Below are positions 1-283 of a DNA stretch of 284 bases, piece by piece. Position 1 is the stretch's first letter; each line of letters starts with the position of its first letter. The stretch lies in assembly GCF_003334405.1 (NCBI RefSeq), contig NZ_QOWM01000070.1; one strand, written 5' to 3'. The position numbers were made by a program, and so were the translations under genes. The DNA is from Escherichia coli. GTDB taxonomy: Bacteria > Pseudomonadota > Gammaproteobacteria > Enterobacterales > Enterobacteriaceae. Below the pieces are notes generated by a model that worked only from the letters and a program-made list of their open reading frames with translations, ran no database searches and was not told where the DNA came from.

Positions 1-75
1 GGTCGTTAGCTCAGTTGGTAGAGCAGTTGACTTTTAATCAATTGGTCGCAGGTTCGAATCCTGCACGACCCACCA
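1..75 (+). tRNA. tRNA-Lys (anticodon UUU), 5'-partial: first G of the gene lies outside the window
   Basis: Seen in sequence: 1-75 is identical to 209-283 and matches the E. coli-type tRNA-Lys(UUU) sequence I recognise (GGGTCGTTAGCTCAGTTGGTAGAGCAGTTGACTTTTAATCAATTGGTCGCAGGTTCGAATCCTGCACGACCCACCA). Anticodon loop CUUUUAA at 31-37 with anticodon TTT at 33-35; T-loop TTCGAAT at 53-59 flanked by stem gcagg (48-52) / cctgc (60-64); acceptor 3' strand acgaccc (65-71), discriminator A (72), encoded CCA (73-75). The paralog (lysT/W/Y/Z/Q/V) cannot be assigned because the copies are identical. Confidence 0.96.
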
Positions 76-82
76 ATTTAAA
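76..82 (+). promoter_or_regulatory. AU-rich 3' trailer (ATTTAAA) immediately after CCA; candidate RNase E cleavage site
   Basis: Seen in sequence: atttaaa at 76-82, and the same a follows the second CCA at 284. Established knowledge: RNase E separates polycistronic tRNA precursors by cutting AU-rich single-stranded sequence a few nt downstream of CCA. The assignment to this site is inference. Confidence 0.45.
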
Positions 83-113
83 GGTGGTTACTGGTAGAGA
101 ACGTGAAGGATAA

Positions 114-129
114 CGTTGCGTTAGCAACG
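114..129 (+). other. Hairpin: 6-bp stem cgttgc / gcaacg with GUUA loop
   Basis: Seen in sequence: 114-119 cgttgc is the exact reverse complement of 124-129 gcaacg, with loop gtta at 120-123. An overlapping alternative is taacg (111-115) / cgtta (119-123). Not followed by a T-run, so not an intrinsic terminator. Confidence 0.5.
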
Positions 130-140
130 GCCCGAAGGGC
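130..140 (+). other. Short GC hairpin gccc-gaa-gggc
   Basis: Seen in sequence: gccc (130-133) pairs with gggc (137-140) around loop gaa (134-136). It abuts the previous hairpin and is not followed by a T-run. Confidence 0.4.
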
Positions 141-156
141 GAGACGAAGTCGAGTC

Positions 157-174
157 ATCCTGCACGACCCACCA
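157..174. repeat. Exact 18-nt copy of the tRNA-Lys 3' end (atcctgcacgacccacca) inside the spacer
   Basis: Seen in sequence: 157-174 is identical to 58-75 and 266-283, so the 18-mer occurs three times in direct orientation. The flanking bases differ (c at 156 versus a at 57), which bounds the repeat. Confidence 0.92.
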
Positions 175-207
175 TCCTGAATGATTAAGGCAGCATAATC
201 CCGCAAG

Positions 208-283
208 GGGTCGTTAGCTCAGTTGGTAGAGCAGTTGACTTTTAATCAATTGGTCGCAGGTTCGAATCCTGCACGACCCACCA
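208..283 (+). tRNA. tRNA-Lys (anticodon UUU), complete 76 nt with encoded CCA
   Basis: Seen in sequence: 208-283 is gggtcgttagctcagttggtagagcagttgacttttaatcaattggtcgcaggttcgaatcctgcacgacccacca. Acceptor 5' strand gggtcgt (208-214) pairs with acgaccc (273-279); anticodon loop cttttaa at 239-245 with anticodon TTT at 241-243; discriminator A at 280; CCA at 281-283. Identical to copy 1, so the paralog cannot be assigned. Confidence 0.97.

Follow-up and report, generated by a model that had tools for sequence, protein, structure and literature searches.

An internal copy of a tRNA-Lys 3' end in the lysT operon of Escherichia coli as the probable tail of an RtT-family repeat unit

Background

Why should the 3' end of a tRNA occur once more between two tRNA genes? 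This question is raised by the stretch of DNA analysed here (the window), which comprises 284 nucleotides (nt) of Escherichia coli contig NZ_QOWM01000070.1. A search of the window located the 18-nt sequence ATCCTGCACGACCCACCA three times, at positions 58-75, 157-174 and 266-283, each time on the plus strand and with 0 mismatches; there was no fourth match in the window with up to 3 mismatches allowed. In 200 dinucleotide-preserving shuffles the expectation was 0.00 matches, which rules out a chance origin of the repeat. The triple direct repeat had been described in an initial annotation, whose three coordinates proved to be exact.

Copies 1 and 3 are the genuine 3' ends of two identical tRNA-Lys genes; therefore, only copy 2 needs an explanation. 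Our preferred reading, to which we assign a probability of roughly 0.7, is that copy 2 is the 3'-terminal segment of an RtT-family unit spanning positions 76-174, i.e. of a structured spacer module that the lysT operon can do without and that is homologous to the 178-bp repeats of tyrT, which give rise to rtT RNA. Copy 2 belongs to an already described family and is real but ordinary.

Results and Discussion

The window within the lysT operon

A self-comparison of the window showed that positions 1-76 and 209-284 are identical. The features of the window are as follows.

1-75, plus strand: tRNA-Lys(UUU) gene lysZ, without its first G at the window edge; annotated as tRNA-Lys in NZ_CP026361.1
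58-75, plus strand: copy 1 of the 18-mer, the true 3' end of lysZ (last 2 nt of the T loop, 3' strand of the T stem, 3' strand of the acceptor stem, ACCA)
76-174, plus strand: RtT-family repeat unit (Rfam RF00391), short form, 99 nt; exactly this block is missing in strains ECNB21-M121 and E47
76-101, plus strand: leader of the unit, variable and A/U-rich; alignment of the five operon copies gives two leader subtypes
102-111, plus strand: 5' strand of helix P0, CGUGAAGGAU, complementary to the first 10 nt of copy 2 with one A.G mismatch
114-129, plus strand: hairpin P1, CGUUGC-GUUA-GCAACG; 99% of cells paired in the 34-element alignment, also found by RNAalifold
130-140, plus strand: hairpin P2, GCCC-GAA-GGGC; 98.5% of cells paired, lies inside the genome-scan pattern
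143-151, plus strand: hairpin P3, GAC-GAA-GUC; 100% of cells paired in the 34-element alignment, changes on both sides in two of three pairs
152-156, plus strand: conserved linker GAGUC, which reads GAGUA in other classes
157-174, plus strand: copy 2 of the 18-mer, the tail of the unit; 157-166 is the 3' strand of P0, and 167-174 (ACCCACCA) copies the tRNA acceptor end
175-207, plus strand: basal lysZ-lysQ spacer, 33 nt; this is the entire spacer in strains without the unit (L123, 1519-1551; L124)
208-283, plus strand: tRNA-Lys(UUU) gene lysQ, identified by ARAGORN, by the Rfam tRNA model (208-280, 79.2 bits) and by annotation; 266-283 is copy 3 of the 18-mer

For lysZ, the Rfam tRNA model matched positions 1-72 with 71.1 bits, the match being 5'-truncated by one base at the window edge. 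The window constitutes the lysZ-lysQ interval of the lysT tRNA operon and is 100% identical to K-12-type chromosomes (NZ_CP026361.1, 781370-781653); in the annotation of this record, the operon is flanked by cpoB and nadA. The initial annotation had suggested a search for further copies of the 18-mer outside tRNA-Lys genes. The whole lysT operon contains the 18-mer ten times, namely as the 3' ends of the five tRNA-Lys genes and five times outside of them, in each case at the end of a spacer or trailer element. A 304-nt tandem duplication (1.9 copies, 97% identity; L001, 1874-2451), which comprises valT/valZ, lysW/lysY and the next RtT unit, indicates that the operon grew by duplicating blocks consisting of tRNA genes plus unit.

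Copy 2 terminates an RtT-family unit

In the window, the Rfam model RtT (RF00391) scored 60.0 bits against a gathering score of 45, with a match ending at position 174. Note that the reported span of 7-174 overstates the element, as the 5' half of the model was fitted to the T-arm of lysZ by means of a 43-nt insertion; the information in the match comes from 100-174. Behind each of the five tRNA-Lys genes of the operon there is an RtT match of 46.7-60 bits, which ends in the 18-mer. An alignment of the five Lys copies gave 24 invariant columns, from CGAGTC through the tail, whereas loops and leaders vary. RefSeq (PGAP) labels as "RtT sRNA" only the copy following lysQ in this operon, plus four copies at tyrTV; the unit of the window is probably unannotated because the model match overlaps lysZ.

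Further properties are in agreement with this assignment. The unit lies directly 3' of a tRNA gene within a tRNA operon, its tail is the 3' end of the upstream tRNA (157-174 equals 58-75), and a closing helix surrounds internal hairpins in a conserved secondary structure. The tyrT copies have the common core ...CGTTGC-N4/5-GCAACG-R-CCCGAAGGG..., but their tail is the 3' end of tRNA-Tyr; a BLAST search with the core hit 8 places in MG1655. According to published work, RtT RNAs derive from tyrT and other tRNA operons, and homologues located beside tRNA genes are expressed in Pasteurellaceae. The likeness to the 3'-end repeats of tyrT, to which the initial annotation had pointed, is thus one of homology, given the RtT score above the gathering score.

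The two types of repeat share the P1-P3 core, the closing helix, the position behind a tRNA, the terminal 18-19-nt copy of the 3' end of their own tRNA, and tandem amplification. They differ in length, as the tyrT repeats (RF00391, gene rttR) comprise 175-178 nt and the Lys unit only 99 nt, and in the extra hairpin bearing a cognate GGTTCGA half T-arm, which is missing in the Lys unit. In addition, the Lys unit carries a tRNA-Lys tail and is located between tRNA genes, whereas the tyrT repeats carry a tRNA-Tyr tail and form a distal array.

Several weak Rfam matches (Plastid-ycf2, SpF41, YrlA, permuted tmRNA) were rejected; they are below threshold and caused by the tRNA genes themselves.

Fold of the unit and its conservation

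Folded as a single sequence, the 99-nt unit reached -34.3 kcal/mol (z = -2.67). Helix P0, formed by 102-111 and 157-166, encloses the three hairpins P1-P3. In the predicted fold, GGUGG (83-87) can pair with CCACC (169-173), which among the operon copies holds only for the one between lysZ and lysQ.

For a comparative assessment, 34 distinct short forms located behind tRNA-Lys or tRNA-Arg(ACG) genes of several genera were aligned, taken from the matches listed in the genome scan described below. With controls that ignore the kinship of the sequences, 94.6% of the cells were paired in the four helices, compared to 87.8% after shuffling (0 of 500 shuffles reached the observed value) and 28-50% for slid partners. 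RNAalifold independently predicted the same four helices from this alignment. P1 and P2 lie partly within the pattern used for collecting the loci; consequently, P0 and P3 bear the weight of the argument. Among the matches listed, P3 occurs with 26 distinct stem sequences, and 319 of 336 cells are paired, the maximum in shuffles being 279.

Searches for other functional elements gave no candidates. No promoter-like sequence was found in the spacers of the lysT operon, ARAGORN and the Rfam tRNA model detected neither a tRNA nor a tmRNA within 76-207, and the open reading frames (ORFs) comprise only 25-42 amino acids, all of them without support. One of these is a GTG-start ORF of 25 codons (103-180, plus strand; MKDNVALATARRARRSRVILHDPPS), for which there is no evidence of translation. 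The conserved core encodes its arginine-rich part, which is reminiscent of tpr, the small basic ORF of the tyrT repeats. Terminators predicted on the minus strand of the operon (L001, 2614-2629, 2393-2408 and 1800-1815) were rejected as artefacts of the element structure, which arise because the P1 hairpin precedes the T-rich complement of the partner strand.

Gain and loss of the unit within E. coli

At least 80% of the 132-nt lysZ-lysQ spacer is kept in 1996 of 5426 complete E. coli genomes; by this criterion, the unit is missing in about 63% of them. In ECNB21-M121 and E47 (L123, L124), lysZ is directly followed by TCCTGAATGATTAA(A/G)GCAGCATAATCCCGCAAG and then by lysQ, which corresponds to the window minus 76-174. 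In ECNB21-M121, the units that follow lysT, lysW and lysQ are missing as well, with breakpoints that coincide exactly with the repeat boundaries, such that four of its five units are gone. In Citrobacter youngae (L094), the unit and with it the internal 18-mer are present in the orthologous spacer, the 3' flank of which is still recognisable. The unit consequently predates E. coli, and the simplest reading of the strain pattern is repeated loss via slippage or recombination between the 18-bp repeats.

These findings bear on the proposal of the initial annotation that the internal copy is a scar of past rearrangement in the tRNA array. Units have indeed been gained or lost between the direct repeats, as the precise absence of 76-174 in two strains and the retention of at least 80% of the spacer in only 1996 of 5426 genomes illustrate. 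An isolated recombination scar is not supported, because a conserved and structured 99-nt element ends with the 18-mer. At the DNA level, identical 18-bp repeats 99 bp apart would allow loss of the unit by slippage or recombination, and unequal crossing-over would let the tandem array of tRNA genes plus units grow. Since the unit is missing in most E. coli genomes, any function must be dispensable.

Other repeats of enterobacteria share some of these properties. REP/BIME and ERIC elements are short, form hairpins, occur in multiple copies, vary between strains and are cotranscribed with their neighbours. In contrast to them, RtT units are tied to genes of stable RNAs and possess a gene-specific tail. 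Gain and loss of units between 18-bp repeats within E. coli bears on the annotation of tRNA operons as well as on the mapping of tRNA and Term-seq reads.

Cognate tails behind tRNA and 5S rRNA genes

Species-representative genomes were scanned with the core pattern, which gave at least 120 loci. About 15 of the matches listed are due to chance; these occur in GC-rich genomes, have no tRNA gene nearby and lack the flanking features of the element. The remaining listed loci are from Gammaproteobacteria and belong to many genera of the Enterobacterales and to Gilliamella, Zophobihabitans, Marinobacterium, Amphritea and Photobacterium. Among the listed matches with flanking sequence, the core was found downstream of seven tRNA species, namely Lys(UUU), Tyr(GUA), Arg(ACG), Arg(CCG), Pro(CGG), Pro(UGG) and Gln(UUG); one further listed match lies behind tRNA-Ser(UGA) and has no tail.

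The tails of these units correspond to the respective tRNA. In 102 of 125 cases among the matches listed, the 18-nt tail, which begins 11-17 nt past the core, is exactly the last 18 nt of the upstream tRNA. With at most 1 mismatch, a cognate tail is present in 111 of the 125, whereas non-cognate tails differ at a median of 7 positions. Among these matches, the tails even track lineage-specific tRNA variants, as is the case in Hafnia, Citrobacter youngae and some Tyr loci. The pairing partner of the tail likewise differs between tRNAs: it is CGTGAAGGAT for Lys, GGGGAAGGAT for Tyr, GGGAGGAT for Arg, AGAGGAT for Pro and ACGGCAGGAT for Gln. The partner strand was placed by means of anchors in the conserved flank, as placement by best complement is noisy for tRNA-Pro. 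Cognate pairs of partner strand and tail had on average 8.42 of 10 positions paired among the matches listed, a value slightly depressed (like the other P0 figures) by a few mis-anchored rows; in 2000 shuffles of the tails, at most 7.78 was reached.

The core also occurs just 3' of 5S rRNA genes in Superficieibacter, Pantoea, Siccibacter, Pseudocitrobacter, Rahnella, Phytobacter and an E. coli-labelled genome (L014, L030, L034, L036, L037, L056 at 297-450, L071, L072, L085 and L109). Here, the tail consists of AACTGCCAGGCAT and 5-6 trailer bases, which together reproduce the 5S 3' end over 18-19 nt and have no CCA end; ahead of the core lies GGCAGTT, complementary to the stretch with which this copy begins. 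None of the 5S-linked elements reaches the gathering score of the Rfam RtT model. The E. coli-labelled strain SCPM-O-B-8794 (L084, L085) carries both Arg(ACG)-linked and 5S-linked units.

Short and long forms and the origin of the units

Among the matches listed, two size classes can be distinguished. Short forms of about 98-135 nt are those of the window, of other lysT operon spacers and of Arg(ACG) arrays; units behind Tyr, Pro and terminal Lys genes are long forms and measure about 155-178 nt. Long forms carry an extra hairpin with the cognate T-stem strand and GGTTCGA. In short forms, identity ends at 18-19 nt, and there is no flank homology beyond. For long forms, we compared the 40 nt past the tRNA with the 40 nt past the tail. 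The median identity within a genome was 0.80-0.97 for the Tyr, Pro(CGG) and Lys classes (8-21 members each), and it was lower, 0.56, for the four Pro(UGG) long forms; between genomes, identity was 0.28-0.47. The long-form repeat spans the terminator and reaches about 55-60 bp.

At operon ends, long forms show a doubling of the intrinsic terminator together with the tail, which leads to the order tRNA, terminator, unit, tail, terminator (L005, L011, L024, L027, L041, L060 and others; L001, 2784-2975). The doubled terminators are near-identical within a genome and different between genera, a pattern that hints at evolution in concert or at a recent repetition of the duplication. A further peculiarity concerns the tyrT loci of Citrobacter, Phytobacter and Kosakonia (L009, L021, L111, L120), where a nearly full tRNA-Tyr-like 5' part is fused to the RtT core at GGTTCGA. 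Its anticodon position reads GCA, and the core is followed by ATCCTT and unrelated sequence. This fusion looks like a deletion between the T arm of the tRNA and the half T arm of a long form.

Could the unit be a decayed tRNA-Lys pseudogene, which originated from a tandem duplication and retained the 18-mer as its surviving 3' end? Growth of the operon by tandem duplication would agree with such an origin, as would the cognate T-stem 5' strand and GGTTCGA in long forms, the tRNA-Tyr-like fusions at GGTTCGA, and the leader GGTGGTTACTGGTAGAG, which resembles the 5' end of tRNA-Lys when read by eye. However, ARAGORN and the Rfam tRNA model recognised no cloverleaf in 76-207, and the core of about 50 nt (P1-P3) is not tRNA-like. 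Moreover, this core is common to units of different tRNA identity and to those of 5S rRNA, which makes a separate decay from each tRNA impossible, and the compensatory changes in the hairpins indicate constraint rather than decay. We therefore regard a pseudogene as highly improbable.

An alternative origin relates to the remark of the initial annotation that tRNA 3' ends are classic integrase attachment cores. The unit would then be a miniature integrative or mobile element that brought along its own copy of the tRNA 3' end, and the 18-mers would be attL/attR-type or target-site duplications resulting from its insertion into the tRNA gene, either in the T loop or at the 3' end. Integrases that target tRNA genes classically leave an identity block which extends from the T loop to CCA, and the 18-mer has precisely this geometry. 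Presence and absence with exact repeat boundaries are likewise compatible with mobility, and so is the fact that the same core occurs with a cognate 18-19-nt tail and a similar block length at seven tRNA species plus 5S rRNA, in short forms without flank homology beyond the block. On the other hand, neither an integrase nor a transposase is encoded near the operon, whose neighbours are cpoB and nadA, and the insert between the repeats comprises just 81 nt. Eight unrelated targets are improbable for a single recombinase; an internal partner strand that complements the tail and varies with it is not expected from target duplication; units occupy orthologous positions in different genera; and the repeat of the long forms covers the terminator. 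There was also no bona fide carriage by phages or plasmids: in the phage and plasmid collections, the core matched only chromosomal contigs or chromosome-sized (misfiled) records. In view of the absence of an integrase, the size of the insert and the range of targets, an attachment core is not supported, and we consider insertion of a mobile element quite improbable. The att repeats of tRNA-integrated islands and prophages do resemble the arrangement in the window, as a direct repeat of the tRNA 3' end from the T loop onwards bounds a strain-variable segment; they differ in that the Lys unit has no integrase, consists of a conserved structured insert, is found with many tRNAs and 5S rRNA and is absent from phage and plasmid records. 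In place of an integrase scar, there is now a concrete RtT-family unit, which is unannotated in RefSeq at lysZ-lysQ.

One property of the tails is not covered by our preferred reading of copy 2 as the end of an RtT unit. In the consensus, the last 8 nt of the tail have no pairing partner, yet they are kept identical to the tRNA, and the short forms offer no flanking homology in support of gene conversion, so that this identity is unaccounted for. A broader proposal is that RtT units are one family copying the 3' ends of stable RNAs. Its core of about 50 nt would have spread behind at least seven tRNA species and 5S rRNA, each time with an 18-19-nt copy of the end (for 5S, with the first trailer bases) and an internal strand complementary to the beginning of this copy. 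The block has the same length at unrelated targets, and its tails follow changes in the tRNA even where the flanks are not homologous; both would speak for an undescribed templated mechanism (insertion or repair) or for a common function of the units in maturing the 3' ends of stable RNAs. As a whole, we advance this proposal only tentatively and consider it more doubtful than plausible. We found no paper describing such a pattern of copied stable-RNA ends, some aspects of which may already be contained in older work (Komine 1990, Rudd 1999, Bosl and Kersten 1991). The cognate tails behind many tRNAs and 5S rRNA are the only part of the present results that could lead to something new.

RNA evidence and a possible processing route

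The lysT operon is expressed as a single transcript of about 1100 nt, which is cut by RNase P from the 3' end; the pre-tRNA-Lys trailers of up to about 150 nt are trimmed by exonucleases (PMC4176162). In the same study, which makes no mention of the repeats, probes for the lysZ-lysQ spacer detected full-length RNA only, exclusively in RNase P mutants, and no small species. Note that the lysT processing experiments were done in K-12, which carries all five units, while many strains have fewer. The claim of the initial annotation that copy 2 places a second tRNA-like 3' end in the polycistronic transcript is borne out.

Term-seq data (PMC7815308) list 3' ends at 781447/781448 of MG1655, i.e. at 78-79 of the window. 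These are located 3-4 nt past the CCA of lysZ at the A/U-rich start of the spacer and are consistent with an endonucleolytic cut that would also make the 5' end of a released spacer fragment. An RNA end at or near position 174, for which the initial annotation had proposed to look, does not appear: the tables contain no 3' end at 781540-781549 (174 corresponds to 781543) or at the other Lys tails, where multi-mapping or peak thresholds could hide one. The homologous copy in the tyrT-tyrV spacer does have such an end, an "orphan" at 1287359, 4 nt past the pseudo-CCA. The two refuting outcomes named in the initial annotation thus give a mixed picture, since the internal 18-mer does occur in orthologous spacers, while the tables show no RNA end at 174. 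In the tyr unit, a tRNA-like end therefore defines an RNA end, whereas none is listed for the Lys unit. Together, the Term-seq tables and the spacer Northern data argue against the part of our preferred reading that concerns RNA, and a discrete Lys RtT RNA therefore stays a proposal.

If the unit is an RtT-family module, the following route may be envisaged. The unit would be transcribed within the polycistronic lysT transcript, and cleavage by RNase P at the 5' end of lysQ would leave it as the 3' trailer of the pre-tRNA-Lys of lysZ. An endonucleolytic cut 3-4 nt past the true CCA would then release it, and due to its tRNA-like end the same trimming machinery might set its 3' end, as in the tyr copy. 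The resulting Lys fragment would probably be short-lived.

Alternatively, the fragment could act as a functional regulatory RNA or decoy, which imitates tRNA-Lys in its top half and at its 3' end and titrates 3' exonucleases, RNase P or ribosomal RelA, or which sponges small RNAs. According to later papers that cite Bosl and Kersten (1991), overexpressed rtT RNA of tyrT is reported to affect the amino-acid starvation response; RtT homologues give Northern signals in Actinobacillus according to published data; and strong structural conservation, the cognate tail and the defined 3' end of the tyr copy also speak for a function. Against it stand the lack of a stable Lys fragment in Term-seq or Northern data, the absence of the unit from lysZ-lysQ in most E. 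coli genomes and of four of five units in one strain, and the 5S-linked variants without a CCA end. On balance, we deem a decoy unlikely. By-products of polycistronic tRNA processing which base-pair with small RNAs are known from 3'ETS-leuZ and the internal spacers of metZWV, which lie between or after tRNA genes and are not known to contain a copy of a tRNA 3' end. The Lys unit is similarly part of a polycistronic tRNA transcript; the copy of a tRNA 3' end is specific to it.

A last observation concerns the tyrT locus. A supplementary table of PMC7815308 lists position 1286692 (minus strand; about 3693 in L002) with a value of about 65 and a very small P. This position lies about 18 nt beyond the last RtT repeat of tyrT and might mark Rho-dependent termination.
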